Of a DNA stretch of 64,000 nt, positions 3,880-59,364 are shown piece by piece (positions within the stretch are counted from its first letter, which is position 1; every line of letters begins with the position of its first letter). Below the pieces are notes generated by a model. It saw only the letters and a list, made by a program, of their open reading frames with translations, searched no databases and was not told where the DNA came from. The stretch comes from a virus (lineage: Duplodnaviria > Heunggongvirae > Uroviricota > Caudoviricetes): the IMG/VR virus record IMGVR_UViG_3300029732_000280; one strand, 5' to 3'. Both the position numbers and the translations under genes were made by a program.

Positions 3880-3890
3880 CGTTTCGCATT

Positions 3891-3911: not shown

Positions 3912-3978
3912 AACAGCCTTAGACCACATAACAGATAGAGGTGTAGACCTTTGCGACCTTAGATTTCCTGTAATCAAG

Positions 3979-5017: not shown

Positions 5018-5162
5018 TCCAAACACTCCTCGCTATGTGTATTTTCTGTCGTATGTGTATTTCTCGCCACCCACAACATATAACAGGATTCTGCACATAG
5101 CAATCCTTACGGGTAAAAAAGACCAGACAAAAAACAGGCAAACTAGCAGCACAATAAAACCT

Positions 5163-5217
5163 TAAAAAACAAAAAAAGCCCTGCCAGATGCAGCCACAAA
5201 AGCCACACCCGGCAGGG
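5163..5217 (-). terminator. Rho-independent terminator after the second serine recombinase.
   Basis: Minus-strand hairpin GCCCTGCC...GGCAGGGC followed by TTTTTTTGTTTTTT. Confidence 0.75.
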
Positions 5218-5232
5218 TTCTGTCTCCTTTCA

Positions 5233-7533: not shown

Positions 7534-7567
7534 AATCTGCTCCTTTCTTCCAGCCTTGCAACTGGTC

Positions 7568-10198: not shown

Positions 10199-10375
10199 TT
10201 AGAGGATAGCGGCATTGACCAGCTATCGTGGCGTTGAAGCAGTGGACTGGTTCGGTTTCAGCCGATTGTGGAGCCTGCCCGTGGGTTATGCGACAACCAC
10301 AAGCCGAATAGATTCTTTGAATCGAACAAAAACGCTTAATGAGAGCCTTGCTACGGCAGGGCTCTTATTTTTTGG
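10199..10375 (+). ncRNA. Candidate structured 5' leader or small RNA (about 175 nt) ending in an intrinsic terminator just before the CDS. Riboswitch/attenuator-like layout, class not recognised.
   Basis: Promoter, then a region with multiple stem possibilities (GATTGTGG...CCACAAG, GATTC..GAATC), then the terminator, then RBS AAAGGAG and ATG at 10392. Confidence 0.35.
10342..10375 (+). terminator. Intrinsic terminator/attenuator inside the leader.
   Basis: AGAGCCTTGC-TACG-GCAGGGCTCT stem (one G-U) followed by TATTTTTTGG. Confidence 0.7.
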
Positions 10376-10391
10376 CAAAGGAGATGATGGC

Positions 10392-10997
10392 ATGAGTACC
10401 GATATACTATATGAAGCGGCATTAACGTGGAAAGAACTAATGCAGTTCAATTACGTTTTTACATATGGCTACAAAAAGCAGCTTCATACCATCACTCTCG
10501 CTTTCCCACCTGAGCGATTTCCGCATCTTGCAGGTTTTCAATATTTGACTGATGTCAGTCTGCCACGATTCAACCGGTCAAAAACGCTTGACATGATCCT
10601 GCGTAAAAAAATCATGCTTTCTCAGATCGAAAAAGGCTCTCAATATCAGGAAAGTGTAAAGCCCCGCCTGGAAGCATTGGTTCGCTTAAAGCAAACAATT
10701 GAACAGGACTTTATCCTCCATTCCTACATGCCGCGTTTTTATTCCTTCAGCACCCAAATACAAGCTGATTACCTGATTTCTAAAGCTACACCGCCAATTG
10801 ATTTTATCTTTATCATCCGATCAACTTCATCAGGTGACATTTCCGTTTGTGATGTTGTTTGCTGCTCTGCTTTTACACAAACAGACCGAGATTACCGTGA
10901 GAACCAGCGCCCACGAACAATCCTGAAAAAAGAACGGATTTGCGTTTCAACATCTGAAACTGTTATCTTATATGATCGGCTAACCGGACAGGAATAG
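10392..10997 (+). CDS. Hypothetical 201-aa moron protein with its own promoter, leader and terminators, sitting between the lysis cassette and the recombinases. The ORF-track start at 10215 is a TTG reading through the leader; real start is the ATG at 10392.
   Basis: RBS AAAGGAG 8 nt upstream of the ATG. Plus strand, opposite to the phage genes. No confident family match. Confidence 0.55.
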   Translation: MSTDILYEAALTWKELMQFNYVFTYGYKKQLHTITLAFPPERFPHLAGFQYLTDVSLPRFNRSKTLDMILRKKIMLSQIEKGSQYQESVKPRLEALVRLKQTIEQDFILHSYMPRFYSFSTQIQADYLISKATPPIDFIFIIRSTSSGDISVCDVVCCSAFTQTDRDYRENQRPRTILKKERICVSTSETVILYDRLTGQE

Positions 10998-41107: not shown

Positions 41108-41392
41108 TCAGTGTGCGTTCCTGATGCACCACTCGATTGCGTGACCGGCATCCGTGTAGGTCTCATCGGAAATCTTCAGAAGTTCCAGCCGGCATTCAAT
41201 CGGTGACCAGCCTTCCTCCGGGTCTTCCACAAAGCCGTATACCGCTCCCTCCAGCATGCCATTCCAGTTCATCTGGGCAACCAGAACCCGGTCACTGAAC
41301 TGCATGATGCTATCGTAGCAAGGTCTGAGCCGGTCGTAGAAGCTCTCGATGCTGATGTTGTTTTCCGGGAAGTCGATCAAATGCTTTTTCAT
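41108..41392 (-). CDS. Hypothetical acidic protein (94 aa), cassette 2.
   Basis: ATG with RBS GGAGGA. Preceded by module copy B and followed by a hairpin plus TTTTGC terminator. Confidence 0.5.
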   Translation of the reverse strand: MKKHLIDFPENNISIESFYDRLRPCYDSIMQFSDRVLVAQMNWNGMLEGAVYGFVEDPEEGWSPIECRLELLKISDETYTDAGHAIEWCIRNAH

Positions 41393-44596: not shown

Positions 44597-44968
44597 TTAT
44601 TCCGGCTTCGTTCCGTCATCCATCTGGATGACTGCCATCTGCCCGAACATGCTGACGAATGCCTCCGGCACCCAGAAGCGTTCCCTGAATTTCTGGATGA
44701 GATCCTGGGGCAGCTCTGCGAAATCTTCCTCGCCCAATCCGCAGATGAAGAAGTTCCCCTTGATGGGCTGCTCCAGTTCCGGGATGTATCTGCTGAATGA
44801 CTTCTCAGTGAACAGCCCGTTGTCATCGGTGACCAGGGCGGCGCGTTCTTCCCACGGGTAGGTGGCTGTGATACAGTCGCAGTCGAGGATGCGGTAGAAC
44901 TCTTTCAGGGAGTTTTCAATGTCCACCACCTGCGGATGCTCCATCGGTTTGATCAGAAGAACCTTCAT
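44597..44968 (-). CDS. Hypothetical protein (123 aa), DUF3846-like N-terminus (MKVLLIKPMEHPQVVDIENSL...).
   Basis: RBS GAAAGGAGG. ATGA overlap with the upstream gene. Confidence 0.45.
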   Translation of the reverse strand: MKVLLIKPMEHPQVVDIENSLKEFYRILDCDCITATYPWEERAALVTDDNGLFTEKSFSRYIPELEQPIKGNFFICGLGEEDFAELPQDLIQKFRERFWVPEAFVSMFGQMAVIQMDDGTKPE

Positions 44969-45432
44969 TCGACCCAGCCTCCTTTCACGATTGCCCAGTC
45001 TGCAAGATGCATCTTCTGCTGTCCGCCCCATGCAATGTCCTCTAATGCTTCCTCCGTTCCGCAGCGGTTGCAGATCTGAATGGCCGCCCTTCGGCTGAGC
45101 GCCTGCTGCTGATGGTCGTAGCAGTCAGGCTTTGCTCCGCACCTGGGGCAACGTGGGCCGGTCTGTCGCGTTTTACCAAGGCGGTCGAGCGACACCTTGA
45201 CCTCGGCATCCGTTGCCACACGGTGGCAACTGTCCGCACCGTAGGCAACGTTCAGATGGCTTCCGGTATCCCAACTCACCAAGATGTTTCCGGCATCATC
45301 GACCCCGTTGCAGGTTCCCTGCGTTCCGATGGGCGGTGCCTGCCTGTCATCCATCTCATCGAGAACGATCCGGCATCCGACCGGGAACTCTTTTCTCAAC
45401 TTCTTGACCATTTTCTGATCTGCGAAATTCAT
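44965..45432 (-). CDS. Hypothetical Cys-rich (zinc-ribbon-like) protein (155 aa).
   Basis: CPRCGAKPDCYDH...ICNRCG motifs. RBS GAGGAGGTG. 4-nt overlap with GGCT-1. Confidence 0.45.
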   Translation of the reverse strand: MNFADQKMVKKLRKEFPVGCRIVLDEMDDRQAPPIGTQGTCNGVDDAGNILVSWDTGSHLNVAYGADSCHRVATDAEVKVSLDRLGKTRQTGPRCPRCGAKPDCYDHQQQALSRRAAIQICNRCGTEEALEDIAWGGQQKMHLADWAIVKGGWVE

Positions 45433-45908
45433 GCCTGCACCTCCTCGATCATCTGCTGGGCGGCATCCTTATCCATGCATTCCTTCAGCGCACCTTCGAG
45501 GATGTGCATCGGGAAGTGGAATGCCTTGTAGCCGTCATGCAAAACTTTGTAGTAATACCGGCTCGGTGCGCGGTGTCCGAAGTCATTCTCCATGATATAT
45601 ACCATTGCGGTCACCATCTCCGGTTCTGCCCCTTCCCGGAGCAGTTCGATGTTCAGGTCTTCCTTGCGGTAGTAGTTCGGGTAGCCCTCATAGAGGTCGA
45701 GGTTTCCTTCGTCTCTTTCCGAGATCTCCCACACCAGAACCGGCGTGTTCTTCTTCGGGTTCGGTGCGATGGTGGCGCAGCCGCGGAACAAAAGCTCCCA
45801 GCCGGCCAGCACCGCCTGCCCTGCAATTTTTGCATCCGGGCATCGGTCTGCCATCTGCTCCACCGACAGGTTGCTGCCGTAGGCGATGTAATATTTCTTG
45901 TTCTTCAT
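45429..45908 (-). CDS. GGCT/AIG2-like (gamma-glutamyl cyclotransferase fold) protein, paralog 1.
   Basis: N-terminal YYIAYGSNLSVEQMADRCP matches the YxAYGSNL motif of GGCT-like enzymes. Preceded by module copy I. Confidence 0.6.
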   Translation of the reverse strand: MKNKKYYIAYGSNLSVEQMADRCPDAKIAGQAVLAGWELLFRGCATIAPNPKKNTPVLVWEISERDEGNLDLYEGYPNYYRKEDLNIELLREGAEPEMVTAMVYIMENDFGHRAPSRYYYKVLHDGYKAFHFPMHILEGALKECMDKDAAQQMIEEVQA

Positions 45909-45985
45909 TTGAATCTCTCCCTTCGGTTTTCTCCGCTCTTGTCTGGCGGTATGGTATATATCACTCTTCTGCCCTGATTTATCAA
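45909..45985 (-). promoter_or_regulatory. Promoter-leader module copy I, diverged: TTGATA-N17-GATATAT then ACCATACCG..GGAGAAAACCGAAGGGAG.
   Basis: Seen directly. Confidence 0.5.
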
Positions 45986-46038
45986 GGCCGATGAGCATCA
46001 TATACTGCACAATGTTTTTTGCTTTTGATCGTGTACTC

Positions 46039-46560
46039 TTACATCATCTGCCGCTTCTTCAGATACCGGATGGCTTCCGCCCTTCCGATACTGGCTGCCA
46101 GTCCACGCTTCAGTGTGTCCAGCGGAAACTCCCAGTCGCTGTATCCGCCCTGCAGCAGTTCAAAATACTCGGCATCCGGGCAGCCAAGCCGCCGGTCCTC
46201 GTGCATCACATAAGCGATGCAGGGCTTTGCCTTTTTCATGCGGTTCCCGTTCAGGTTCCAGACCGGAAGCTGGAACTGCTTCTTGTAGTAGTATCGTGGG
46301 CAGCCCTCGTACCGGTCCAGCAGGAGTTCATCGTATTCCGAGAGTTTCCAGACCACCGCAGGTACGCTTTCATTGGCATCCTGCTCGATGGTGGCATAGC
46401 AGCCGGTCTTGCTCTTTTTGAACAGAAGCCGGTAGCCCTTGATCTCGGTCGTGCCGACCACCACAGCGTAGGGGCATCTCTTTCCCATCCGCTCCATGTC
46501 GAGGTTGCTTCCGTAGGCAAGATAATATCTGGATGGGACTCGGCTGATCAACTCAAACAT
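46039..46560 (-). CDS. GGCT/AIG2-like protein, paralog 2.
   Basis: RYYLAYGSNLDMERMGKRCP motif. Start overlaps the stop of the upstream 78-aa gene by 8 nt. Confidence 0.6.
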   Translation of the reverse strand: MFELISRVPSRYYLAYGSNLDMERMGKRCPYAVVVGTTEIKGYRLLFKKSKTGCYATIEQDANESVPAVVWKLSEYDELLLDRYEGCPRYYYKKQFQLPVWNLNGNRMKKAKPCIAYVMHEDRRLGCPDAEYFELLQGGYSDWEFPLDTLKRGLAASIGRAEAIRYLKKRQMM

Positions 46561-46789
46561 CTGCCTCACCGTCCTCCCTGCCAGTGAATTCCACGCCCTG
46601 GAAATCCTCTGTCCCAAGCTCGATCTGGCTGTCCTGCCACCAGTCCTCTGCCACACGCTGTGCTTCCTCCACGGTCGGCTCTTTCATCTCGGATTCATAA
46701 ATGGTCACCGTTCTCTGGTAGGTCTCGGTGATGGTCACCTTAAAGGTTCTGCCACCCGGTGTGTTTTCATTTTTTAACGTGCTTTTCAT
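46553..46789 (-). CDS. Hypothetical small protein (78 aa) between the amidoligase and GGCT-2.
   Basis: ATG with RBS GAAGGAGGTG. Translationally coupled to GGCT-2. Confidence 0.45.
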   Translation of the reverse strand: MKSTLKNENTPGGRTFKVTITETYQRTVTIYESEMKEPTVEEAQRVAEDWWQDSQIELGTEDFQGVEFTGREDGEADV

Positions 46790-46856: not shown

Positions 46857-47795
46857 TTATTTGTTCCGCCAGGATGCGTTGCCCTCCATGTTCCGCAGAA
46901 GGATTTCCCTTGCCGTTGCAAATTCATCCCCGATGAATCCCAGCCTCAGCATCCAGCACCGCATCGCATACTTTTCATTGTCGGTCTGCTGGGGCTTTGG
47001 GCTTGCCGTCCTGACCATCTTGGCAAGCTGGCTCATTGCGAGGCAAAGCTGGATATAGGCTTTCATCTCACCGGCGTGCAGTCCGTTGCGCTTTCCGTCC
47101 GCTGGGTCTGCGAATTGGAAAAGGCGGAATTCAATGGTCCCTTTTGTAAAGGTGGCATGGAGGTTCAGCATATGGTACCGGCTTGAATTGTAGTGGGCAT
47201 TCCGGTTTTCCCAGCTGGAACCGTTGCCTTCGTACCAAATGTCTTCCAGCTTGCGCATGGTGGTCGGCTTCTCGCGGTTCAGCCGGTCGAGGAAGCGATG
47301 GTTGACCACCTGGCAATATTGTCCGGTGCGCCCTGCATCGATTCGGATGGCTCTGCCGATCTGCTGTTCGTGCGCCGCCATGATATTCACAAGGTTGCGG
47401 ATGGTCTTTGCGGTGTGGTCGCCTTTGCCGATGTGGATGTGAACCCCGCATCCGCGGCTTGGGCCGCTCTTTGCGCCTGCCTTTCGGAGCAGTCGGATAA
47501 TCTCCTGCAGGGTTTCGATGTCGTCGTAGGTGAGGATCGGGGTGACCAGTTCGCATTTTTCTGCGTCCGGTCCGTAGATGCTCACATCCCTCTGGAATTT
47601 CCAAACCCTGCCCTGTCCATCCTTGCAAGCCCAGCTGTAATATCCGTACTCGCTGGCCGCGTTCCATGCTCTGGTTCCGAAGTACTCGGCGACCTTTCTT
47701 GCCGCTTTTTCTCTGGTGATGTTGTTCATCTCGATCTCAACCCCGATGGTCTGGTTCTTCATGGCTTCAATCTGCTCTCTTGTTTTATCGTTCAT
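46857..47795 (-). CDS. Amidoligase (glutamine-synthetase-like carboxylate-amine ligase fold, Amidoligase_2-like), 312 aa.
   Basis: IGVEIEM (E-x-E strand) and GCGVHIHIGKGD (H-x-H) motifs typical of GS-like/GCS2-like amidoligases. Firmicute-type neighbourhood with AIG2/GGCT-like genes. Start ATG 47795. Confidence 0.55.
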   Translation of the reverse strand: MNDKTREQIEAMKNQTIGVEIEMNNITREKAARKVAEYFGTRAWNAASEYGYYSWACKDGQGRVWKFQRDVSIYGPDAEKCELVTPILTYDDIETLQEIIRLLRKAGAKSGPSRGCGVHIHIGKGDHTAKTIRNLVNIMAAHEQQIGRAIRIDAGRTGQYCQVVNHRFLDRLNREKPTTMRKLEDIWYEGNGSSWENRNAHYNSSRYHMLNLHATFTKGTIEFRLFQFADPADGKRNGLHAGEMKAYIQLCLAMSQLAKMVRTASPKPQQTDNEKYAMRCWMLRLGFIGDEFATAREILLRNMEGNASWRNK

Positions 47796-47880
47796 GGTAT
47801 GTTCTCCTTTGTTTTTTCCTTGTTTTCCCTTTCGGTATGTGCATATTACCGTCATTACCGTCAGGTGCGGATAATAGCAA
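47796..47880 (-). promoter_or_regulatory. Promoter-leader module copy J: TTGCTA...GACGGTAAT GACGGTAATAT (9-bp internal duplication) then the TGCACATACCGAAAGGGAAAAC leader.
   Basis: Seen directly. Confidence 0.55.
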
Positions 47881-48036
47881 GGATATAAAAGAACATATAT
47901 TCGACAAATATAAGGCAGAATGATCGTGTACATTTCTGCAGTTTTTCCGCTTGATAATATACATTTTCAGAGCTAATATCGGTACAATGGAAGAGGGTCT
48001 CGCATATTTTCCGGCCCCCATTGGGGGATTGGGAGC

Positions 48037-49221
48037 TTACGCTCCCGCCTCCAGCATCTGCGCCGTGTCTGCCCCACAATCGGGCTGTGTCGGCTGGTTT
48101 TCTTCCTGTTCGACCGTTTCCCCTGTGGCAGGATCGCCGTTCTGTGCCGCCAGTTTCGCGGCTTTCAGGGCATCCCGTTTTGCCTTTTCCCTTGCAAGGA
48201 ACTTCTGTGCTTCCTCATCCGTGCGGAAAGCCGCATGGCCGGAAAGGTTCTCCATGAGGATCTTGCGTGTCTCTTTGAAATCCGGACCGTTCATCCCCAG
48301 CCGCAGGAGCCATGTGCGGAGTGCGTATTTCTCATTCTCATCGTTGACATCCTTTGCCTGGATGCGCTTCTGGCTGATAGCCTGCTGGTTCATCAGCACC
48401 GCCAGCTGTGCAAAAGCCGTCAGATGTTCGTGGTCCGGTGCAGTCGGGAAGCCGGTAAAGGTGACCTTCTCGGTGGTGATCTTCAGGCCTTCCAGTGCAG
48501 CACCATGTTCAGTCTCATAGTCGCTGACCGCATTGATGAAGTTCATGATGGCAAAGGTGCAGCTATCGTCCTTCAGCTTCTCGACCAGCCCCTCTTCCAC
48601 ATGGAAGTGTCCTCCAGTCGCCTTGCCGATGAGCTTGCCGCGGCTGTAAAGAAGGTTGACCAGGTTGCGGAGTGTCACACCGTTGTGCTGGCTGACCGGG
48701 AATGCAAGTTCCAAGTCCAGCGGCACCTCTTCCGGCTGATCTTCTGTCTCCTGCGATTCTGCATCCGGCTCATCCTCTATGGTATCATCCTCAGCCGTAT
48801 TGTCCGGCTCCAATGCATCCTCGGCTCCTGCTTCCGCAGGTTCATCTTCTGCGGTATCTGCATCTTCGGATTCCTGCTCGTCCAGAACCTCCAGCTCTGC
48901 TTCGGGCATCTGCTCAGTTTCCGCTTCGGTCACAGGCTCCTCATCCATATCCGCTGTCAGCTCTGTGTCCTCCGGCTGGTCATCCGTGCTCTCAATACTC
49001 TCGCCGCCGCGGATCAGTCCCTCATTCAGCAGGGTCGTCAGCAGCTCGGCATCTGCATTCTCCGGCTCGACCAGAAGGTTGCCATTCCGGTCGATGGTGT
49101 AGCTCCCGATGTCGTAAGAATACAGAGGTGCTTTGGTATAGTAAGGGTGGATGCCGGTCAGCTCCTCCATGCGTTTTGCGAGGGTCTTTCTCTCGGCTAC
49201 GTTCAGTTTAAATTTCAACAT
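48037..49221 (-). CDS. Hypothetical 394-aa protein: unknown N-terminal domain, a ~100-aa poly-acidic linker, and a C-terminal region homologous to the amidoligase C-terminus.
   Basis: NDENEKYALRTWLLRLGMNGPDFKETRKILMENL here, compared with TDNEKYAMRCWMLRLGFIGDEFATAREILLRNM in the amidoligase. Preceded by module copy K. Confidence 0.5.
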   Translation of the reverse strand: MLKFKLNVAERKTLAKRMEELTGIHPYYTKAPLYSYDIGSYTIDRNGNLLVEPENADAELLTTLLNEGLIRGGESIESTDDQPEDTELTADMDEEPVTEAETEQMPEAELEVLDEQESEDADTAEDEPAEAGAEDALEPDNTAEDDTIEDEPDAESQETEDQPEEVPLDLELAFPVSQHNGVTLRNLVNLLYSRGKLIGKATGGHFHVEEGLVEKLKDDSCTFAIMNFINAVSDYETEHGAALEGLKITTEKVTFTGFPTAPDHEHLTAFAQLAVLMNQQAISQKRIQAKDVNDENEKYALRTWLLRLGMNGPDFKETRKILMENLSGHAAFRTDEEAQKFLAREKAKRDALKAAKLAAQNGDPATGETVEQEENQPTQPDCGADTAQMLEAGA

Positions 49222-49444: not shown

Positions 49445-51694
49445 TTATTCTTCCAGACCTGCACACCACGCGATGCCGGCCAGAACAAAGAATGCGTTGG
49501 CTAAGCAAATGCCGTTGCCCCAGATACGGTACTCTGCCGAATCCGTATATGGGTCAGCCAGCCATTTCCGGATCTGCTTCTCCGTCTTCGGCTTCTTGGC
49601 ATGGGTCACGATCTTACGGTGTGTTTCAAACACATCCGCCCAGAACGCCAGATCTTCCTCGGTTGGGTTTTCCGTTCCGAGATCTCTGCACCACCAGTCA
49701 GGGAATCCCTGCAGTCTGGCACACTCGGTCGGTGTCAAACGGCGGACGGTATAGGTCACAGGTGCGGGCTGTGCTTCCGGATTGTCGATGACCAGACGGT
49801 CATTGAAGGCATCCTGCCCGTTGAAGCCGCTGGGATGTGCCCCGGTTACCACGGTTCCCATGACACCCTCGTTCAGATGCGGCACCGGTGCGATAGTGGT
49901 TGGGTCTTTGTAGTCCCGTGCCATCAGGGTCGGTGCGACTTCTTTTGCCACCTGCATATAGGAGCCGGTGGTCATGGCATACACATCCTCCGGTGCGCAG
50001 ACTGCATGGCGGTCAGTGGCATCCAGTGTAAAGCAGACATCCTCATTGACGCCATCCCCCTGCGGACCGTTCTCATCCTTGCGGCCGATCATGTTGCCCT
50101 GCAGGACGAAGGTCTGCATCTGGTCACTCCGGGTCGCCATCAAAGCGCCGGATTTGCCATGCAGATCGATCAGCTCATTGCGCTGGTTCACATGGAACGC
50201 AGTCATCTCTTCCGGCTGTGCCACAAAGGTCTGCTGCTTCATCCCCGGCTCTGCTGCCAGTGCCGCTGACTTCTCTCCCAGATCCCTGACTTCATCCCTC
50301 TGATTCTGGGTAAAGGCGACCGGCTCTACCACACAGATGCCGCCCTGATTGCAGGTCGGGTCACCACCGCTGCGGTCCAGTGTCCGGGAGGTCTCCGCTT
50401 CATAGAAACCGCTATGCGGATTGTCGGACATCATGGAGTGGCTGGCTTTGGAGCAGACACCATAGCATTTCGGAACGAACAGTGTCTGGTCGTTATTGCA
50501 GCCGAGTGTGGCAGATTTTTCTTCCTGCCAAATGGCTCCCTTGCCGCCACCCTCGCAACCGGAACGGATCTTCAGCGTGACTGCCGGGGAGTTTTCAACT
50601 TCTTTCACCGGACTTTCCACTGAATTTTCAACAGCGTCTATGACCATCGGGACATTACCGCCACCTGTACCGCACCGGCTTGTCAGTGTCTGCACCTTAC
50701 CATCCTCGGAAATCTTCACCCGGCTGTCAGCAGGATGATTTTCCAGTGCGATGGCGGCAGGCACAACACCAGCCCGGAGGGTCGGTGAGCGTTCCTCCTC
50801 GTATCCGATGCTTCTGGCATCTGCCGAATGCTCGGTACAGAAACCGGCAGCTTCTAGAACACACGGCTGATGTCCATGCTCCTCTGCCCGGAGGGTACCG
50901 GTCACATCCTGGGAAACATCCATCTGCTTACCGCCCTGGTCGTTCAGACAGATCCGCCCTCCTGCTCCGCTGAAGCCTGCCTCTCCAGTGCCGCTTTCAG
51001 CACCGGCGGCAGCTCTTTGCCACGCATGGAAGCCCTCCGCAGAATACCGAGACACGCCTTCGGACTCAAATAGTACCTTTGGGGCACTCTGGTCTGCAAA
51101 ATCTGCGACAAGGTAGATACGTTTTCTTCTTTGGGGAACGCCCCACCATTGTGCATCAAGAACTCGATACGCGACGCTCCATCCGTCTCCCACGTAGTAG
51201 TCAGCGTCGGGCCATCCTTTCTTCTCAGGCGCAGGCACCGAGGCGGACGGTTCTTTAACACCGATGACTGCTTCGAGGACTGCTTTGAAGTCCTGCCCTT
51301 TGTTTGAGGAGAAGGCCCCTGGCACATTCTCCCACACGATAAATCTTGGTTTTTCTCCATTGGTCTTACACCTCATTTCTTTCACGATTCGGATTGCTTC
51401 GTAAAACAGACTGGACCGTGAACCATCCAGACCGTCCCGCTTACCGGCGATGGACATATCCTGACAGGGACTGCCAAAGGTGATGATGTCCACAGGCGGC
51501 AGGTCTGCGCCGCTGATGGCGGATACATCTCCGTAGTGCCTCACCTGTGGCAGACGTTTGGTCGTGACCCGGATGGCAAAGGGCTCGATCTCGCTGCTCC
51601 ACAGCGGAGTGATCTGCCCGGTCAACAGACCGCCCAATGGAAAACCCCCGGAGCCATCAAAGAGGCTGCCGAGGGTCAACTGTTTATTCTCCAT
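49445..51694 (-). CDS. DNA (cytosine-5)-methyltransferase, 749 aa, with an unusually long variable region (multispecific-like).
   Basis: Motif I LFDGSGGF, motif IV GSPCQDMS, motif VI FIVWENVPG, motif VIII QRRKRIYLV, C-terminal RLQGFPDWW. About 450 aa lie between motifs VIII and IX. Confidence 0.9.
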   Translation of the reverse strand: MENKQLTLGSLFDGSGGFPLGGLLTGQITPLWSSEIEPFAIRVTTKRLPQVRHYGDVSAISGADLPPVDIITFGSPCQDMSIAGKRDGLDGSRSSLFYEAIRIVKEMRCKTNGEKPRFIVWENVPGAFSSNKGQDFKAVLEAVIGVKEPSASVPAPEKKGWPDADYYVGDGWSVAYRVLDAQWWGVPQRRKRIYLVADFADQSAPKVLFESEGVSRYSAEGFHAWQRAAAGAESGTGEAGFSGAGGRICLNDQGGKQMDVSQDVTGTLRAEEHGHQPCVLEAAGFCTEHSADARSIGYEEERSPTLRAGVVPAAIALENHPADSRVKISEDGKVQTLTSRCGTGGGNVPMVIDAVENSVESPVKEVENSPAVTLKIRSGCEGGGKGAIWQEEKSATLGCNNDQTLFVPKCYGVCSKASHSMMSDNPHSGFYEAETSRTLDRSGGDPTCNQGGICVVEPVAFTQNQRDEVRDLGEKSAALAAEPGMKQQTFVAQPEEMTAFHVNQRNELIDLHGKSGALMATRSDQMQTFVLQGNMIGRKDENGPQGDGVNEDVCFTLDATDRHAVCAPEDVYAMTTGSYMQVAKEVAPTLMARDYKDPTTIAPVPHLNEGVMGTVVTGAHPSGFNGQDAFNDRLVIDNPEAQPAPVTYTVRRLTPTECARLQGFPDWWCRDLGTENPTEEDLAFWADVFETHRKIVTHAKKPKTEKQIRKWLADPYTDSAEYRIWGNGICLANAFFVLAGIAWCAGLEE

Positions 51695-52955
51695 CAGCGA
51701 CCTCCCTTTCCGGCTCGAAGGTTGCCACTTCCTCGAACTTCAGCTTCTGGCCGTCACGGACAACAAACACATCATCGTAGTGACCATCGCTGTGTTCGAT
51801 GTACCGCTTCACAATCACATCCACGAACTTCGGGTCCAGCTCGATACCCCGGCACACACGGTCGGTCTCTTCACAGGCGATCAGGGTCGAGCCGCTGCCG
51901 AGGAACGGATCGAGGACGATGCCGTTGGTCATAGTGGAATTGCGGATCGGATAGCTCATCAGGCCAATGGGCTTCATGGTCGGGTGGTCCTTGTTGGACT
52001 TCGGCCGGTCATACTCCCATATGGTCGTCTGCTTCCGGTCGGAATACCACTGGTGCTTCCCCTTTTGCTTCCAGCCGTAAAGACACGGTTCGTGCTGCCA
52101 CTGGTAAGGACTGCGGCCCAGCACCAGCGCATTCTTCTTCCAGATACAGCACCCGGACAGGTAGAACCCTGCATCCTTGAATGCCTTTCTAAAGTTCAGC
52201 CCTTCCGTATCTGCATGGAAGATGTAGATGGAGCCGTCGTCTGCAAGATGGCCGTACATCTGCTGGAAAGCTGCCAGAAGGAACTGGTAGAATTCCGAAT
52301 CGCCCATGTTGTCATTCATGATCTTACCGGCAGTCTCTTCCACATCCACGTTATAAGGGGGATCGGAAAGGACCAGATTTGCCTTGGTTCCGTCCATCAG
52401 GGTGTCGTAGCATTCTGCTTTGGTGGAATCCCCGCACAGAACGATGTGCTTTCCCAGATGCCAGAGGTCACCATCTTTGGAGAAGCATGGCTGCTTCAGC
52501 TCGGATTCCACATCGAAGTCATCTTCCTTGACCTCTTTGCTGTGGACTTTGTTGAACAGCGTCTCAATCTCCGGCGGCTCAAAGCCGGTCTTACCAAGGT
52601 CGAAGTTGGAATCCTCGATGTCCTTCAAAAGATCAGCCAGCAGAGAATCATCCCATGCACCCGTAATCTTATTGAGCGCAATGTTCAGGGCTTTCTCCCT
52701 GGTCTTGTCGATGTCCACCACCGCACAAGGCACTTCGGTGTAGCCCAGCTCCATCGCTACGGTCAGTCTCTGGTGGCCGCCGATGATCGTCATATCGGCA
52801 TTGACCACCAAAGGATCTGCGAACCCGAACTCCGTGATGGAGTTCTTGATCTTCTCGTACTCTTTATCCCCCGGCTTCAGCTTTTTCCGGGGATTGTATG
52901 CGGCCGGCTTGAGTACGGACACCGGCAGCATCTTCAGTTCAGCAGTCGCTTTCAT
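51684..52955 (-). CDS. ParB-like N-terminal nuclease domain fused to a DPPY-class (N6-adenine/N4-cytosine) DNA methyltransferase.
   Basis: IIGGHQRLTVAMELG is a ParB/Srx motif. VLSDPPYNV is MTase motif IV. FLGSGSTLIA is the AdoMet-binding motif. Confidence 0.85.
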   Translation of the reverse strand: MKATAELKMLPVSVLKPAAYNPRKKLKPGDKEYEKIKNSITEFGFADPLVVNADMTIIGGHQRLTVAMELGYTEVPCAVVDIDKTREKALNIALNKITGAWDDSLLADLLKDIEDSNFDLGKTGFEPPEIETLFNKVHSKEVKEDDFDVESELKQPCFSKDGDLWHLGKHIVLCGDSTKAECYDTLMDGTKANLVLSDPPYNVDVEETAGKIMNDNMGDSEFYQFLLAAFQQMYGHLADDGSIYIFHADTEGLNFRKAFKDAGFYLSGCCIWKKNALVLGRSPYQWQHEPCLYGWKQKGKHQWYSDRKQTTIWEYDRPKSNKDHPTMKPIGLMSYPIRNSTMTNGIVLDPFLGSGSTLIACEETDRVCRGIELDPKFVDVIVKRYIEHSDGHYDDVFVVRDGQKLKFEEVATFEPEREVADGE

Positions 52956-52976: not shown

Positions 52977-53201
52977 TCACATGCGCATGACCCCGGAGAA
53001 CGGCACGAAAAAGGAGCCGAACAAAAAGCCCGACTCCATCTCATCTCCATCTTCCTGCGGCTGTTCAGCCATCTCGCACCATTCCGGGTTTTCCCCGTTC
53101 ACGGATGCCAGGACCTTATCTTCCGCATCGTCAATCGCATGTACACAGATACCCCCGGTGTTGAACATCGGAAACACACCGATAATCTTACTCACCCTCA
53201 T
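52977..53201 (-). CDS. Hypothetical small acidic protein (74 aa).
   Basis: ORF only. Compact operon context. Confidence 0.3.
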   Translation of the reverse strand: MRVSKIIGVFPMFNTGGICVHAIDDAEDKVLASVNGENPEWCEMAEQPQEDGDEMESGFLFGSFFVPFSGVMRM

Positions 53202-53688
53202 CCACTCCCTTCATCCCGTATCGATAATCCCAGTAACAATTCAGACTGCAGAACTTCCGCTGCCGTTTTCCTTCATCTACGGCATGGAACTCCCTTCCAC
53301 AGTTTTTACAGACCGCGATCCGAAAAGGCTTATGCTGCCTGTAATATTCCTCCCGGCAATCAGGAGAACAGAACCGTCTCCGACCACTGTTCCCTCTCTG
53401 TACGAGAATGCGTCCGCAAACCGGACAGCGCCGTTCCCCCGACCCATCCGGTGGCTGTAACTGGCAGCTCCCCGTTTCCGGCAGACCCAGTTCCCGGCAG
53501 TAATCTGTGACCTGTTCCAAAGAAAGCCCTGTGTTTTCTGCGATCTCCACACATTCAAACCCTGCAAGCCGCTGGCTTCGGACTTCTTCTCTCTCCGGGC
53601 GGTACTCATAGCCCTCAAACACACAGTCCAGCCGGACACCGTTCTTTACCACATCACGTTCTATGTTCAGCGGTTCTTCCATTTGCAT
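53188..53688 (-). CDS. Hypothetical Cys-rich protein with repeated RRFCSxxC / RKFCSxxC zinc-ribbon-like motifs.
   Basis: Start ATG 53688 with RBS GGAAGGAGGG. Paralogous motifs shared with 53654..53974. Confidence 0.45.
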   Translation of the reverse strand: MQMEEPLNIERDVVKNGVRLDCVFEGYEYRPEREEVRSQRLAGFECVEIAENTGLSLEQVTDYCRELGLPETGSCQLQPPDGSGERRCPVCGRILVQRGNSGRRRFCSPDCREEYYRQHKPFRIAVCKNCGREFHAVDEGKRQRKFCSLNCYWDYRYGMKGVDEGE

Positions 53689-53974
53689 CGCCCTCCTTCC
53701 AGCGTCCTTTGTTTGCACAGGCACGGCTGCAATATTTCCGTTCCAGACCATACTGGTGCCGGTAGGAAAACTCCCTGCCGCACACCGGGCAGATCTTCGA
53801 CCGCACGGTCTTCCAGTTCTCCGGCTTTGGATGGGTGTTGTTCCACCGTGACCGGCATTCCGGTGAGCAGAACTTCCGTGGTCTGCCTTTATGGTTTGGT
53901 ACGATTGCCGTACCGCACTGAGGGCAGAAGGAAAAAGCCATGTCCCTGATCATCTCAGCCGTGTAATCTTCCAT
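53654..53974 (-). CDS. Hypothetical Cys-rich protein (106 aa), paralog of the preceding gene (RKFCSPEC, RKYCSRAC).
   Basis: ATG with RBS GAGGTGAGGG. Confidence 0.45.
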   Translation of the reverse strand: MEDYTAEMIRDMAFSFCPQCGTAIVPNHKGRPRKFCSPECRSRWNNTHPKPENWKTVRSKICPVCGREFSYRHQYGLERKYCSRACANKGRWKEGDANGRTAEHRT

Positions 53975-54375
53975 CTGCCCTCACCTCACTCTCATTTTTC
54001 GCCGTTTCTTCGGCGGTTTCTTAGAAAAATTTCAAAATACATACGAAAAGCAGCGAAGTTGAAATCGGCACTGCCCCGCCAGGTTGGATCGTTGTTGCGA
54101 CGGCCGATTCCCGCTCGCCCCTGCTCCTCCCGGAACAAGCTAAAATGTGCGAAAGCTCCCTGTTTACGAGAGGTTTCACACACATTGGTTCATTTCGGGG
54201 AAAAAGAATGGCACCGGAACCGAAGCTCCGATGCCTGTACATTTTCCTGTTTCATTTTGCGCCGTTAATCCTCTGACCCCCGGCCTATCAATTTTGCGGT
54301 TTTTCACAGAAAAGGGCGCACCGGTCTCCGTGTGACTTCACTGTAGAGAAGTGACCCCGGCCCCGGTGGGGGGTG

Positions 54376-54735
54376 TCAGTAGGTGTAGGTCGGGTTGATG
54401 TCCTCGGTCAGCGTCTTCTTATCGTGGCAGTTCTTGCAGAGAGCCTGCCAGTTGTTCTGGTCCCAGAAAAGTTTCTGGTCACCACGGTGCGGAATGATGT
54501 GATCCACCACCGTTGCCCGGACGTACTTACCCTGCTTGGCGCACTGCACACAGAGCGGATGAGCTTCGAGATATGACTTTCGGGCTTTCTGCCACCGCCT
54601 GTTGTATCCACGCTTCGCCGCCGGGCGGGTTACTTCCGGGTGGAGAAGCAGGTGCTTCTCACAGTAGAGCCGGCCGGCTTCCACCAGCTCCGGGCAGCCG
54701 GGATGATGGCACGGTGTCTTTGGTCTGTACGGCAT
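54376..54735 (-). CDS. HNH endonuclease.
   Basis: CxxC...H-N-H arrangement (CEKHLL...VDHIIPHRGD...CKNCHDKKT). Confidence 0.8.
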   Translation of the reverse strand: MPYRPKTPCHHPGCPELVEAGRLYCEKHLLLHPEVTRPAAKRGYNRRWQKARKSYLEAHPLCVQCAKQGKYVRATVVDHIIPHRGDQKLFWDQNNWQALCKNCHDKKTLTEDINPTYTY

Positions 54736-54738
54736 GGG

Positions 54739-55806
54739 TCAGTCCTCCCACGGAAGACCAGCCTTGCCGAAGTGACCGTAAGCACTGACCTTGTTGTAAT
54801 CTACATCCAGCAGTCCCAGCCGCTTGATGATACCCTGCGGGGTCAGGTCGTAGCTGTCATGGACGTAGGCTTCGATGAAGTCAAGGGACTGGTGCTCCGT
54901 ACCGAAGCACTCCACCGACACACCCACCGGCTGTACCACACCAATGGCGTAGGCCAGCTGGACTTCGCACTTGTCAGCGTAGCCCGCCTGCACGATGTCC
55001 TTGGCAATCTTCCTCGCCATGTATGCTGCGGAACGGTCCACCTTGGTGGGATCTTTACCGCTCAGAGCGCCACCACCCATGCGACCGATGCCACCGTAGG
55101 TATCGCACGCCAGCTTCCGGCCAGTCACACCACAGTCGGCGTAGCTGCCGCCCAGCACGAAACGACCGGTCGGATTGACGAGCTTCGTGAAGTCACCGTC
55201 CAGACCGTATTCGCAGGCGGCCAGTACCATCATGGATTCGATGATGTGCCGGAAGTCGCTGACCTCCACATCCGGGCTGTGCTGTACGGAGCAGAGGAAG
55301 GTAGTGATGCGTCCGGTGTCGTAGTCGTAGCTGACCTGTGCCTTGGCATCTGCACGGAACATCTTGGACGGATGATTCTTCAACAGCTGCAGGAACTTGG
55401 TGGCGACCATGTACGGAATCGGCATCTGCTCTGCCGTTTCATTGGTGGCATAGCCATACATGATGCCCTGGTCACCTGCACCGCCCTTGTCCACACCGAG
55501 CGCAATATCCGAGGACTGCTTGTCCACCAGAATGCCGACGCGAAGAAGCTCGGTCAGGTTCCACCCCAGCTTTTCGGCACCGACGAGGTTGAACACATTG
55601 TGGACGATCTGGTTGTAGTTTGGCCGGTAGTCGGTGGTGACCTCACCGGCAATAAAAAGCTGGCTCTTTTTCAGCAGACACTCGATTGCCACACGGGCGT
55701 TCCTGTCATGCTGAAGGATGTCGGTCACGATGGCATCTGCGATCTGGTCACAGATCTTATCGGGATGGCCATTGCTGACCTGTTCACAAGTGATGATCTT
55801 ACTCAT
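54739..55806 (-). CDS. metK: S-adenosylmethionine synthetase (MetK), phage-encoded, compact (355 aa).
   Basis: GHPDKICDQIADAI, GAGDQGIMYGYA, GGGALSGKDPTKVDRSAAY signature motifs. Confidence 0.9.
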   Translation of the reverse strand: MSKIITCEQVSNGHPDKICDQIADAIVTDILQHDRNARVAIECLLKKSQLFIAGEVTTDYRPNYNQIVHNVFNLVGAEKLGWNLTELLRVGILVDKQSSDIALGVDKGGAGDQGIMYGYATNETAEQMPIPYMVATKFLQLLKNHPSKMFRADAKAQVSYDYDTGRITTFLCSVQHSPDVEVSDFRHIIESMMVLAACEYGLDGDFTKLVNPTGRFVLGGSYADCGVTGRKLACDTYGGIGRMGGGALSGKDPTKVDRSAAYMARKIAKDIVQAGYADKCEVQLAYAIGVVQPVGVSVECFGTEHQSLDFIEAYVHDSYDLTPQGIIKRLGLLDVDYNKVSAYGHFGKAGLPWED

Positions 55807-55944
55807 GTTCTATCCTCTCTTTCCTATATCACAAAGCAGGCCGTTTTTGTCCTTGCCCACAAATAGGCTCCCACAAAGACTGCCTGCCCTGTCTCAGTTC
55901 ATGGTTTCCGTTCATTCTCTTATTTTGCTTTCTTCTTCTCAACT

Positions 55945-55972
55945 CATGTAGCATGTAGCAACCATGTAGCTG
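55945..55972. promoter_or_regulatory. Triple direct repeat CATGTAGC(A) (CATGTAGCATGTAGCAACCATGTAGCTG) sharing the GTAGCA half-site of the XRE operators. Candidate repressor-controlled early promoter or origin iterons.
   Basis: Seen directly between the primase stop and the MetK start. Followed by a ~60-bp AT-rich tract. Confidence 0.45.
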
Positions 55973-56030
55973 AATTTTATATAAGAAAGCTATAAAAGAA
56001 AGTAATAATAAAAAAGGTTATGAAATCTCG

Positions 56031-56054
56031 GCTACAAATCAGCTACATGCTACA
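56031..56054. promoter_or_regulatory. Inverted partner of the repeat at 55945 (GCTACAAATCAGCTACATGCTACA, the reverse complement TGTAGCATGTAGCT), flanking the AT-rich tract.
   Basis: Seen directly. Confidence 0.45.
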
Positions 56055-56078
56055 AAGCACCCAAAATCAGAAAAAAGA

Positions 56079-58508
56079 TCACAAAAGGCTGTCCTTTGGC
56101 TTATATGCATCCTGTACCGTCAGGTCTTCTGCTCCATCTTCTACTTCCTTGAACTTGCAGTCCATGATCAACGTAGTCTGTCCGCCACCACCTTTGGGGC
56201 GCTTTCGGACCACTTTGAAATGCACGCCGATAGCATTTTTAAAGTTCTTCTGGTTCTCCGAGGAATACCCGTTCTCCTCACACCACTTTGTGTACAGCTG
56301 GTATGCTGCTGCCGTCCGAAGTTCCGATCCTTCCTCTTTTTCAAGCCACGCCTCAATGAACTGTCCGATCCGATCAGAATCATCCTTGTAATCTTCCGTG
56401 GCTTTCGTGACAGCCTGCGGAAGTTCCAAACCCCGCTGGCAGAACTTTTTGTACCCTTCCAGACACCAGTTGAAAATACCTGACAGGTTCTCCGGCTTCG
56501 CAAACTGCCCCTTCAGCCCCTGATCCTGTTCTCCCTCTTCAAAGTGACGGTTAAACGGGATGATCTTCAGTCGGCCGGATTGGAACAAGGTCATATCATT
56601 GACATTGGGCAGGTAGTTCGTATTGATAAAAATCTTGAAAACCGGCACAAAATCAAAGCTGTTCTCATTCAGGAATCGAGCATTGATGGTGTCGTTGCCA
56701 GTCATTCTTTTTACGAGAGCCGCATTAAATGTGATCTTCTTCTCCGGCTCAGAGATATTTACAAATCTGGAGCCAACCAGACGAGCTACTTCTTCCGAAG
56801 GTCCGCCTGTGTTCCCACCACGGAATTTAGCTGCCAGCATATCCGGATTCGATGTCTTTCCATAGTCGCCCATGATCTTCAGAAATGTTTCCATTGCAGT
56901 GCCTTTGCCGTTTCGGGAAGTGGCACCGTAAAGGATAAACATACACTCCTGCGAGGTATCTCCTGTCAGAGCGTATCCCAAAGAACGCTGAAGGAAGTCT
57001 GCCAGATCCGCATCCCCGCACATGACCTCCTTGATAAACGAGTGCCAGCGTGGACAGTCTGCTTCCGGGTCGTAGGTAATACCGGATTCCATTGTGAGAT
57101 AATCCTCCGGCCGATGCTCCCTGAATTCCAGTGTCCGCATATCCAGCGTTCCATTTTTGCAGTTGAAGAAATACTTATTCCTGTCGAATGCCTGCATGGA
57201 GATCGGGTACACGGACATGGCATCTCTTAACATCGTTTCCCGATTCTTACGCAGCTGCAGTTTTCGGACACGGTCGATGAACCGCTTCCTGGCATCCTCT
57301 TCGGTGATCGTCAGGGCAAACACATACAGCTTGTCAGCCAGCAGCTTTGCCAGTTCCGACACCTTGAGATTGCCTTTGTCCGGCCGCCAGACAGATCCGT
57401 CATAGACATACCAGCCTTTACGTTCACTGTTGTACCGGGCAATCTGCTTGAAATAATCCGCAAACATATTGCCCATGCCGATCTCATTTCTGCCATACCG
57501 GGCATTTGTGTGCGGTGCCATTTCTTCCAGCGTGATCGTAATTTTGGTAAGATCCGGCTGGAACTCGATATAGTCATCCTCATCCAGCTTGGAAAACTCT
57601 TCATCCACGATATCCTGTGCGTTGACCGGCATATAGACGGCCGCACAGGTATTGACCGTGTTACGGATAGAGATTGCACCGTAGGTCGAACCAGCCTGTT
57701 TTCGGTCCCACTTGGGGCGCATCAGACCAGATGTGCGGAAGATACGGTCCATCTGCTCCTCATCACAGCCGCACCAGAATGCCAGGATAGACAAGAGTGC
57801 CATGTCTGCATCCGACTGGCTGCCGTAGAGGTCTTCCCACTCACCGGCAAAGAGCTTTTTGAACTTTTCAGAGTTACTGGCCTCGTTAGCGTGTGTGATA
57901 ACAGCCTCATCATCCAGATACGAATGGTGCTGAAAATGAGTCTGCTGTACCTGTTTGTTCCGCTTCATGAGCGTATCGAGCAGTGTGGTCATCGCCGTTT
58001 CATCGTTGGGAATTTCACCTGTGCGGTAAACATCTCCCGTTACGGTGACGAAGCGGTTTGTCGCACCGGGCATATACACTTCCAGACCTTTGCTGCGGTT
58101 GTTGATGTAGTAGACCGTCTTGTCGTAGACGTAGTCTTCTGGCACATGGAAGAATCCACGCAGACCTTTGCCGGACGGTGACTTCTCTACATACGCTGTA
58201 GAAAAGATTGAAAGTACGGTGTCCGCTGTGTCATTCAGCGTCCCGTCCTCACGGATACAGTGGTCGATGTCAAAAGCTCCGATACCACTGCCCACAGCAA
58301 TGCCGATGCCGTCATAGCCGCCCATTGCATAAGTGACAAGCGTGGTCTTGAAATCTGCAAAGGTGCGGAGATCATTGATCCTGGCTCTATCACCATTCGC
58401 CGGGTTATACGGCATCTTGGTCTTCTGACCGTTTCGCTTTTCAAATTTCCAGACACAAAACCGGCAGGAGGTCTTCAGCTCCGCCGGGATATTTTTGATA
58501 TCCACCAT
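56079..58508 (-). CDS. Bifunctional primase-polymerase (PrimPol N-terminus) fused to a D5/P4-type SF3 helicase (phage/plasmid primase).
   Basis: GIGIAVGSGIGAFDIDHC is the PrimPol DxD motif. FILYGATSRNGKGTAMETF is Walker A. 809 aa. Confidence 0.85.
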   Translation of the reverse strand: MVDIKNIPAELKTSCRFCVWKFEKRNGQKTKMPYNPANGDRARINDLRTFADFKTTLVTYAMGGYDGIGIAVGSGIGAFDIDHCIREDGTLNDTADTVLSIFSTAYVEKSPSGKGLRGFFHVPEDYVYDKTVYYINNRSKGLEVYMPGATNRFVTVTGDVYRTGEIPNDETAMTTLLDTLMKRNKQVQQTHFQHHSYLDDEAVITHANEASNSEKFKKLFAGEWEDLYGSQSDADMALLSILAFWCGCDEEQMDRIFRTSGLMRPKWDRKQAGSTYGAISIRNTVNTCAAVYMPVNAQDIVDEEFSKLDEDDYIEFQPDLTKITITLEEMAPHTNARYGRNEIGMGNMFADYFKQIARYNSERKGWYVYDGSVWRPDKGNLKVSELAKLLADKLYVFALTITEEDARKRFIDRVRKLQLRKNRETMLRDAMSVYPISMQAFDRNKYFFNCKNGTLDMRTLEFREHRPEDYLTMESGITYDPEADCPRWHSFIKEVMCGDADLADFLQRSLGYALTGDTSQECMFILYGATSRNGKGTAMETFLKIMGDYGKTSNPDMLAAKFRGGNTGGPSEEVARLVGSRFVNISEPEKKITFNAALVKRMTGNDTINARFLNENSFDFVPVFKIFINTNYLPNVNDMTLFQSGRLKIIPFNRHFEEGEQDQGLKGQFAKPENLSGIFNWCLEGYKKFCQRGLELPQAVTKATEDYKDDSDRIGQFIEAWLEKEEGSELRTAAAYQLYTKWCEENGYSSENQKNFKNAIGVHFKVVRKRPKGGGGQTTLIMDCKFKEVEDGAEDLTVQDAYKPKDSLL

Positions 58509-58513: not shown

Positions 58514-59164
58514 TTAGACCTCCTTCCTGCTGTATACAGTGTTGCTGCCGTAATTGGCATTGCTGCCGCGCACAGCATTTTCGTCTGTATTTTGTTTGTT
58601 TTTCTTAGTACTGTGCATATCAAACTGTCTTGCCACAGCCTGTTCAATCTCCTGCTTTTTCTCAGCAGAGATCACCCTGCAAAGGCGTCCAAACAGTGCC
58701 GACTGGTCGATCGTTGTGATCTGCTCGACCAGCAAAATGGAATCCTCCAGTCGTTCCGCTCTGAGCATCTCACAATGTGCTTCTGTCAGCACGATATGTG
58801 TTGGCAGGTCGAGCTTTTTCATCTTGCTCGTAAGCGGAATAACTGTGAAGGTCTGCGAATAACGGTTCGCAATATCGTTTGTCAGGATCAGCACCGGACG
58901 GTTCCCACTCTGCACACAGGTGCCATAATGGTTACCAAGCTCTGCAAACCAGATCTCATACTGCTTCGGGATTCTGGTCGTCGGCCAGTTGTAAGCGGGG
59001 AAGCTGTCATAAGTTGTGTGGCTGCTTTCCTGCTGCTTTTCGGTGCTGTGGTTATGCGTGGCGGCGCTTTTATGCTTGGTGCAGCCACGCTTGTTGATGT
59101 ACTTGTTCACATGGATCTTCCTGCCACGCGGCAGAATCCGTGCGTTGCTTTTCTTTCTCCCCAT
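58514..59164 (-). CDS. MazF/PemK-fold protein with a ~100-aa basic N-terminal extension.
   Basis: YEIWFAELGNHYGTCVQSGNRPVLILTNDIANRYSQTFTVIPLTS fits the MazF/PemK G..RP.LV.S.D....V.P.T pattern. Start ATG 59164 with RBS GAGGTG. Confidence 0.55.
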   Translation of the reverse strand: MGRKKSNARILPRGRKIHVNKYINKRGCTKHKSAATHNHSTEKQQESSHTTYDSFPAYNWPTTRIPKQYEIWFAELGNHYGTCVQSGNRPVLILTNDIANRYSQTFTVIPLTSKMKKLDLPTHIVLTEAHCEMLRAERLEDSILLVEQITTIDQSALFGRLCRVISAEKKQEIEQAVARQFDMHSTKKNKQNTDENAVRGSNANYGSNTVYSRKEV

Positions 59165-59364
59165 TCTGGATTTCACCTCTTCTCTCCTGATACAAAAACA
59201 GCCGTTCGGAATCCGAATCCGTGACGGCATAACATGTAAAAAGCGGATAAAAATACCGGGCAGCTTTCGCTCCCAGCACTCTTATCCGCTCCCGGTTTTA
59301 TCTTATTTTCCTAGTATAAAGTATAGCAAAAAGCCGATGTACGCATAAGAAGCAGTTTTCCTAA

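Follow-up and report, generated by a model that had tools for sequence, protein, structure and literature searches.

The closest described relatives of the gene studied here come from Candidatus Heliusvirales, in which an S-adenosylmethionine (SAM) synthetase (K00789) is encoded by 58.9% of 1,032 curated genomes and these genes were proposed to help against restriction-modification (de Jonge et al. 2024, PMC11283538). For these phages, neither the gene nor the anti-restriction hypothesis is therefore new. Viral metK has also been catalogued as a widespread organosulfur auxiliary gene that is transcribed in the environment, conserves its motifs, has a ratio of nonsynonymous to synonymous substitution rates (dN/dS) below 1, clusters apart from bacterial homologues and co-occurs with dcm in Streptococcus suis phages (Kieft et al., bioRxiv 10.1101/2021.01.05.425418). 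The homologous metK of the S. agalactiae prophage 12/111phiA has been deleted and complemented, which affected aggregation, glycocalyx and biofilm (PMC8223999), and the SAMase of phage T3 depletes SAM and inhibits MetK (bioRxiv 10.1101/2023.02.27.530186). Here we analyzed the metK gene of a viral DNA stretch of 64,000 nucleotides (IMG/VR record IMGVR_UViG_3300029732_000280, Caudoviricetes; hereafter the window). It encodes a genuine, compact MetK, lacks the SAM-I riboswitch of its cellular counterparts, and lies ahead of two DNA methyltransferase genes. We consider it reasonably probable that this riboswitch-free MetK raises SAM so that the phage methyltransferases can protect progeny DNA from restriction. 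Compared to the published work, our additions are modest, namely the absence of the riboswitch from phage copies, the compact clade, and the adjacency to methyltransferases in three further lineages.

The gene is located as follows:

54739..55806, minus strand: metK, encoding a compact S-adenosylmethionine synthetase of 355 residues (TIGR01034, Pfam, phrog_1569)

The open reading frame (ORF) starts with ATG, a few bases downstream of a GAGAGG ribosome-binding site. Its product scores 390 bits over residues 5-354 against the TIGR01034 equivalog (EC 2.5.1.6), the curated cut-off of which is 309.4 bits. The N-terminal, middle and C-terminal Pfam domains of MetK follow one another in order, all above the gathering threshold (PF00438, residues 4-98, E=1.8e-24; PF02772, residues 108-216, E=1.6e-24; PF02773, residues 218-354, E=1.5e-55). 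Solved Escherichia coli MetK structures match residues 4-354 with an E-value of 2e-91, and the same residues align to positions 2-345 of the 346-position profile phrog_1569 with 449 bits. The first-pass annotation, which had read canonical MetK motifs in a compact protein of 355 residues, is borne out by these matches. An AlphaFold2 model built on a 26-sequence alignment (A1) was poor, with a mean pLDDT of 58 and a pTM of 0.42, and was not used for fold searches; the fold is settled by sequence homology to the solved MetKs.

Alignment against E. coli MetK, whose residues 5-369 agree with the alignment derived from the structure match, gave an identity of 45.8% and showed that all mapped catalytic and substrate-binding residues are kept. 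These are His14, Asp16, Lys17, Glu42, Glu55, Gln98, Asp118, Asp163, Lys165, Phe230, Asp238, Arg244, Lys245, Lys265, Lys269 and Asp271 (E. coli numbering), in addition to the motifs GHPDK, GAGDQG and GGGAxSGKD. The mapped residues show little or no variation among 26 relatives sharing 75-92% identity, and seven pairwise comparisons with relatives yielded dN/dS values of 0.03-0.13. The gene is under purifying selection and its active site is intact. The loss of essential catalytic residues, which the first-pass annotation had named as the mark of an inactive homologue, was not seen, and residue conservation together with dN/dS rules out that reading. The protein is predicted to be catalytically competent.

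Compared to the cellular enzymes of E. coli (PDB 1RG9 and 7LL3) and Firmicutes, the window MetK has the same three domains and the same mapped residues at 43-49% identity, but lacks the C-terminal “TDKA...” tail, the loop insertion after the gating loop and the SAM-I riboswitch. The shortening against E. coli MetK amounts to 29 residues: 14 are missing from the C-terminus, five (DPLEQ) directly behind the gating loop, four from a helix and three from a hairpin turn, in addition to a few single residues. Across the cellular enzymes, the helix and the hairpin are each shorter by 3 residues. Against the cellular MetK of Firmicutes, with a median length of 397 residues, the gap grows to ~42 residues, because the Firmicute enzymes have an extra loop insertion of ~18 residues. 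The roughly 40 missing residues of the first reading match this larger gap, and they map to the C-terminal tail and to trimmed surface loops.

The identity of the window MetK to homologues at the genome loci drops sharply, from 53-97% for proteins of 343-356 residues to 43-49% for those of ~380-400 residues. In a neighbor-joining tree of 25 sequences, 12 compact sequences form a clade with bootstrap values of 100/100, of which the window MetK is a member. They share insertions and deletions, with the C-terminal tail lost and the loops trimmed. The clade is not exclusively viral, as this was ruled out by compact copies in Oribacterium parvum and in a metagenome-assembled genome of an uncultured Clostridia. 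The copy of O. parvum ACB1 (352 residues; locus L151, 9787-11056) is chromosomal, sits among TrkH, TrkA and PGK genes behind a SAM-I riboswitch, and nests within the phage-dominated clade in the tree. It indicates that a compact MetK is able to function as a chromosomal enzyme whose gene is subject to ordinary control by SAM. This copy may be a phage gene that took the place of the housekeeping metK of the host, or else the cellular origin from which the phage clade arose; the pattern hints at an exchange of metK between phage and host, the direction of which lies beyond a neighbor-joining tree of this size. The copy in the Clostridia genome (locus L154, 10001-11071; 52% identity) has no riboswitch and is found in a glycosyltransferase/O-antigen-ligase locus, a context that is neither phage nor standard housekeeping.

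The trims that distinguish the phage clade, namely the lost C-terminal tail and the shorter loop, helix and hairpin, might also be read as a device of counter-defence, in which a MetK variant resists SAM-depleting or MetK-inhibiting factors, or an inert subunit perturbs the host MetK. The T3 SAMase shows that SAM is indeed contested in phage-host conflict (bioRxiv 10.1101/2023.02.27.530186). However, we consider such a role extremely unlikely. Purifying selection acts strongly on the full set of catalytic residues, the same compact form is a riboswitch-controlled chromosomal metK in O. parvum, which argues for an ordinary enzyme, and no known host SAM-depleting defence is implicated at the window locus. 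For the suggestion of the first-pass annotation that MetK counters host defences which deplete or sense SAM, the analysis found evidence in neither direction. Compared to the T3 SAMase, the window MetK shares the manipulation of the SAM pool in the conflict over restriction-modification and BREX, but the two proteins are unrelated and the strategies opposite: T3 destroys SAM, whereas the window phage would add it.

The region upstream of metK was searched for RNA elements:

55807..56078, minus strand: intergenic region of 272 nucleotides upstream of metK, with no SAM riboswitch

In all five cellular loci used as controls (Acetivibrio, Acutalibacteraceae, Lachnospiraceae, Bacillus and Oribacterium), a SAM-I riboswitch (RF00162) lies directly upstream of metK, with scores of 71-85 bits. 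By contrast, none was found upstream of the nine phage-borne copies, which comprise the window, the Clostridium fessum prophage, the Evtepia phage, Javan3, three IMG/VR contigs and two prophage-like loci. The window as a whole has no RF00162 match at the gathering score, and positions 55700-56200 have none at E<=10. Moreover, the 272-nucleotide leader matches no Rfam family at the gathering score, and gave only chance-level matches at E<=10. The phage metK would thus escape SAM feedback at the RNA level.

Downstream of metK, the following genes lead to the two methyltransferases:

54376..54735, minus strand: HNH endonuclease of 119 residues, starting 3 nucleotides past the metK stop (PF01844, E=4.5e-10; phrog_144, 128 bits)
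53654..53974 and 53188..53751, minus strand: two overlapping small Zn-ribbon (CxxC/FCS-like) ORFs (phrog_2308, 66 and 81 bits; weak zf-FCS)
51684..52955, minus strand: ParB_N domain fused to an N6/N4 DNA methyltransferase of the beta class, with an SDPPY motif (PF01555, PF02195, phrog_498)
49445..51694, minus strand: C5 cytosine DNA methyltransferase of 749 residues (PF00145, E=9.3e-41)

The ParB-methyltransferase consists of an N-terminal PF02195 domain (residues 6-89, E=1.3e-8) and a PF01555 domain (residues 193-382, E=3e-28), and scores 625 bits against phrog_498. The C5 methyltransferase possesses motif I at residue 12, motif IV (PCQ) at 76, motif VI (ENV) at 122, motif VIII (QRRKR) at 188, motif IX (RLQGFP) at 660 and motif X (GNG) at 726. 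Between motif VIII, ending at about residue 192, and motif IX at about 660 lies a variable region of ~450 residues, which contains about nine units with a TL dipeptide and a tandem duplication (residues 451-495 and 496-540) scoring 74 against a shuffle maximum of 39. In the multispecific C5 methyltransferases of the Bacillus phages SPR, phi3T and rho11s, one catalytic core is likewise paired with a long variable region, and several target-recognition units containing TL are found in the latter. Their variable regions are about half the size of the ~450 residues, with about nine TL units, seen here. The length, the TL units and the duplication fit the suggestion of several target-recognition domains made in the first-pass annotation, and the window enzyme is a candidate, probably multispecific methyltransferase. 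The domains and motif positions agree with the first-pass annotation, which had described a ParB-DPPY methyltransferase and a large C5 methyltransferase with a variable region of this length. It had also placed metK directly upstream of HNH and both methyltransferases; this is correct for HNH, but the methyltransferases follow only after the two Zn-ribbon ORFs and two hairpins. The Zn-ribbon ORFs carry repeated CxxC...FCS-type motifs, and phrog_2308 is listed as of unknown function.

The linkage of MetK to methyltransferases is conserved. In a set of 62 IMG/VR loci that were anchored on MetK and extend at least 6 kb downstream of it, HNH after MetK and the ParB-methyltransferase are present in every locus, and the C5 methyltransferase in 60. 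The same adjacency is seen in Streptococcus phage Javan3 and Evtepia phage NatCom_42594. Three other MetK lineages, which have the longer form of 389-400 residues, likewise lie beside DNA methyltransferases. In NatCom_35866 (MetK of 41% identity), MetK overlaps a ParB_N and N6_N4 methyltransferase; Faecalibacterium phage FP_Brigit (43%) encodes a Dam-like/GNAT protein 1.8 kb downstream; and the 190-kb Microcystis cyanophage Mel-JY01 (33%) has a C5 methyltransferase 0.5 kb downstream (locus L229, 7690-8568, PP395634.1; PF00145, E=1.6e-37), which is annotated “hypothetical protein”. One relative (L145) lacks MetK and the C5 methyltransferase and keeps HNH and the ParB-methyltransferase, and another (L097) retains only a MetK remnant of 95 residues, with the rest of the block absent. 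Among primase-anchored relatives, 51 of 56 loci carry all three genes; these are closely related, so a 2x2 test of MetK against methyltransferase is uninformative. In two distant IMG/VR relatives, an insertion of ~1 kb parts MetK from HNH and contains a Fusobacteriales-1 RNA motif (RF02920, 91-93 bits) on the opposite strand (L069, 11650-11767, and L071, 11657-11774, both minus).

A general auxiliary metabolic gene, serving methionine or organosulfur flux or the overall methylation capacity with no tie to a specific methyltransferase, would agree with the catalogue of viral metK as an organosulfur gene (bioRxiv 10.1101/2021.01.05.425418). The viral genes of that study resemble the window metK in motifs, dN/dS, separate clustering from bacterial sequences and co-occurrence with dcm, but were framed in organosulfur metabolism, whereas the context in the window is DNA methylation. 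Such a gene would not be expected to recur beside DNA methyltransferases in four MetK lineages, and the window ORFs that were scanned include no further gene of the methionine cycle, which makes this explanation distinctly unlikely. Methyl-donor supply to the phage methyltransferases is the best-supported role, and the gene association suggests the link to anti-restriction. In this model, metK expression without a SAM-I riboswitch would escape the SAM feedback repression that governs the cellular metK of Firmicutes, and an active MetK, if expressed at the right time, would boost SAM synthesis while the phage genome replicates. Provided that SAM is limiting during infection, the extra SAM would feed the orphan methyltransferases of the phage, namely the ParB-fused N6/N4 enzyme and the large, probably multispecific C5 enzyme. 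Progeny DNA might then be methylated fast enough for protection from restriction systems, which is where the benefit to the phage would lie.

Several points weigh against this role. Much of the synteny within the lineage reflects shared descent and is not independent evidence. The coupling is not strict: two relatives (L142 and L144) lack MetK but possess a gene resembling that of the C5 methyltransferase, and in the published Heliusvirales genomes the C5 methyltransferase is found in 67% against 58.9% for MetK (PMC11283538). In the window itself, 1.4 kb with two terminator-like hairpins lie between the MetK-HNH pair and the methyltransferases. Moreover, the sole genetic study of a homologous prophage metK reported aggregation and biofilm phenotypes of the lysogen rather than an infection phenotype (PMC8223999), and the searchable literature yielded no experiment tying phage MetK to phage DNA methylation or defence.

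The two hairpins have the following positions:

54210..54235, minus strand: terminator-like GC-rich hairpin followed by a T-run, after HNH (stem of 11 pairs, seven of them GC)
53037-53013: second terminator-like hairpin, before the ParB-methyltransferase

Terminator-like sites are enriched, with 18 found against 9.2 +/- 3.0 in shuffled sequences. From these signals, metK and HNH may form a transcription unit of their own, ending at the hairpin after HNH. Such apparent independence, to which both the intergenic region ahead of metK and this hairpin point, would also favour lysogenic conversion, in which the MetK of the resident prophage alters the physiology of the host to the benefit of the lysogen, for example in aggregation, glycocalyx or biofilm, or in the activated methyl cycle and the pools of autoinducer-2 (AI-2) or polyamines. 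Deletion and plasmid complementation of the 12/111phiA metK in S. agalactiae changed flocculation, chain length and glycocalyx, but the complementation was partial and confounded by secondary mutations (PMC8223999). In addition, the window metK is not at a prophage end, the usual site of morons, but belongs to the replication module, where the primase-helicase precedes it and the methyltransferases follow, and lysogenic conversion leaves the methyltransferase adjacency in unrelated phages, including the cyanophage Mel-JY01, unexplained. We regard it as unlikely as the main role, although the rival explanations are not all mutually exclusive.

If the SAM-supply model is true, very common human-gut prophages carry a self-contained kit of epigenetic protection that combines a methyl-donor synthase with broad-specificity methyltransferases. 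Such a kit would help to account for the spread of these phages between Firmicutes despite restriction barriers, and would bear on phage engineering and on the interpretation of gut methylomes. A further extension, which we regard as doubtful, is that the feedback-escaping MetK co-evolved with the C5 enzyme of about nine units, so that many cytosine motifs are methylated per burst, and that the phage-type MetK displaced the housekeeping gene in some hosts, in view of the riboswitch-controlled O. parvum copy that nests inside the phage clade. If so, the co-evolved pair could be one reason why Heliusvirales are so widely distributed in gut Firmicutes. The discovery value is small, as both gene and hypothesis are published.

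In this lineage, the gene is by no means the uncommon auxiliary gene that the first-pass annotation had taken it for. In addition to its frequency among the Heliusvirales genomes, tblastn found MetK in 140 deposited phage records, 90 of which are Streptococcus phages, and most of the listed Streptococcus phage copies are already annotated as S-adenosylmethionine synthetase. In a large protein collection, at least 8,000 proteins matched at E<=1e-30, and 5,635 metagenomic sequences belong to a single cluster of 97% identity. Two kinds of match in the phage collection were set aside: the Helicobacter records are prophages integrated next to the host metK (PMC11321410), and the Salmonella record is a bacterial contig of 691 kb. 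The annotation of the gene varies, since six or more GenBank records of NatCom phages (for example locus L001, 7998-9044, PV036445.1) call MetK a “peptidase”, the record of NatCom_35866 calls it a “hypothetical protein”, and PHROGs lists phrog_1569 as “unknown function”.

The window reads as a temperate siphovirus-type prophage. It encodes three large serine recombinases, an endolysin, a holin, tail proteins, a tape-measure protein of 1,984 residues and an AbiEii toxin, along with an HK97-type capsid protein, a ClpP-type protease, a portal, TerL and a P27-type TerS, followed by the DNA-metabolism genes. Around metK, the minus strand encodes in turn SNF2 helicase, MazF-like protein, primase-helicase, MetK, HNH, the two Zn-ribbon ORFs, the ParB-methyltransferase and the C5 methyltransferase, beyond which lie two amidoligases, two GGACT paralogs, DUF4314, Nmad4 and TerS. 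The gene next to the metK leader is:

56079..58508, minus strand: primase-helicase of the D5/NrS-1 type, immediately upstream of metK (PF08706, PF22763, PF03288)

This adjacency places metK in the replication and DNA-metabolism module.

The TerL shares 75% identity over 527 residues with that of Evtepia phage NatCom_42594, labelled Candidatus Heliusvirales in GenBank, and the portal 53%. The best TerL matches include many Streptococcus Javan and S. suis prophages, at ~76%. By these pairwise TerL and portal identities the phage is assigned to the Heliusvirales type, the order itself being defined by TerL phylogeny. The window MetK belongs to the same family as that of the Heliusvirales phages (Javan/phiNJ3-type and 12/111phiA) and is as compact (345-356 residues), forming one monophyletic clade with 56-62% identity to the named phages. 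It also occupies the same site, between the replication genes and HNH, with adenine and C5 methyltransferases, ahead of TerS. The differences are only at the level of the lineage: the window phage falls in a human-gut subgroup with IMG/VR contigs of 97-100% identity and the C. fessum prophage, and this subgroup has a C5 methyltransferase of far greater size, in addition to an amidoligase/GGACT cassette that is absent from Javan3. A 97%-identical MetK with the same neighbours is present in Clostridium fessum SNUG30386 (L147), and MetK identity in IMG/VR contigs reaches 99%. A Lachnospiraceae-like host, C. fessum or a relative, is the best explanation.

The cassette downstream of the C5 methyltransferase consists of the following genes:

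48037..49221, minus strand: divergent amidoligase (phrog_2443)
46857..47933, minus strand: Amidoligase_2
46039..46656 and 45429..46010, minus strand: two GGACT (gamma-glutamyl cyclotransferase) paralogs
44965..45432, minus strand: DUF4314
41108..41392, minus strand: Nmad4 “nucleotide modification associated” protein, just upstream of TerS

Together they may constitute a peptide or nucleotide modification system; a literature search on Nmad4 together with amidoligase found nothing relevant. The SAM might serve a modification of DNA or protein beyond methylation through these genes. The block of C5 methyltransferase, divergent amidoligase, Amidoligase_2 and GGACT is kept after MetK in ~60 IMG/VR relatives, and the Nmad4 domain lies just ahead of TerS, as would be expected on this explanation. 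Javan3, however, has MetK and both methyltransferases with no annotated amidoligase or GGACT gene before TerS, indicating that MetK is independent of the cassette, and L145, a relative that lacks MetK, has retained the amidoligase and GGACT genes. As the only SAM-using enzymes detected are the two methyltransferases, we hold this explanation to be very unlikely, and prefer the supply of SAM to these methyltransferases.

The leader between the primase-helicase and metK contains two further features:

55947-55978 and 56023-56054: imperfect inverted repeat of 32 nucleotides, made up of GCTACATG/CATGTAGC units, around an AT-rich core
55942..55914: weak promoter-like site upstream of metK

The inverted repeat could be an operator or an origin-like element. 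The same stretch gave two sub-threshold matches to the ssNA-helicase RNA (E=0.15 and 2.4). The promoter-like site was given no weight, since the region has five such sites, fewer than the shuffle mean of 7.1.

Several other elements of the window were noted. A MazF/PemK domain with an N-terminal extension of ~88 residues is encoded just upstream of the primase-helicase (58514-59230, minus strand), and a MazF-like gene is found in the Evtepia phage too. The AbiEii nucleotidyltransferase toxin gene (29371-30210, minus strand) lies beside the tape-measure gene. The serine recombinase genes, encoding 610, 766 and 786 residues, cluster at one end of the element (975-9928, minus strand) with an AAA_25/KaiC-like ATPase. 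Between them and the endolysin, a full-length drum RNA (RF02958, 91.9 bits against a gathering score of 43) is found at 10229-10340 on the plus strand, where it overlaps the start of a PBECR4 nuclease-like ORF (10215..10997, plus strand).

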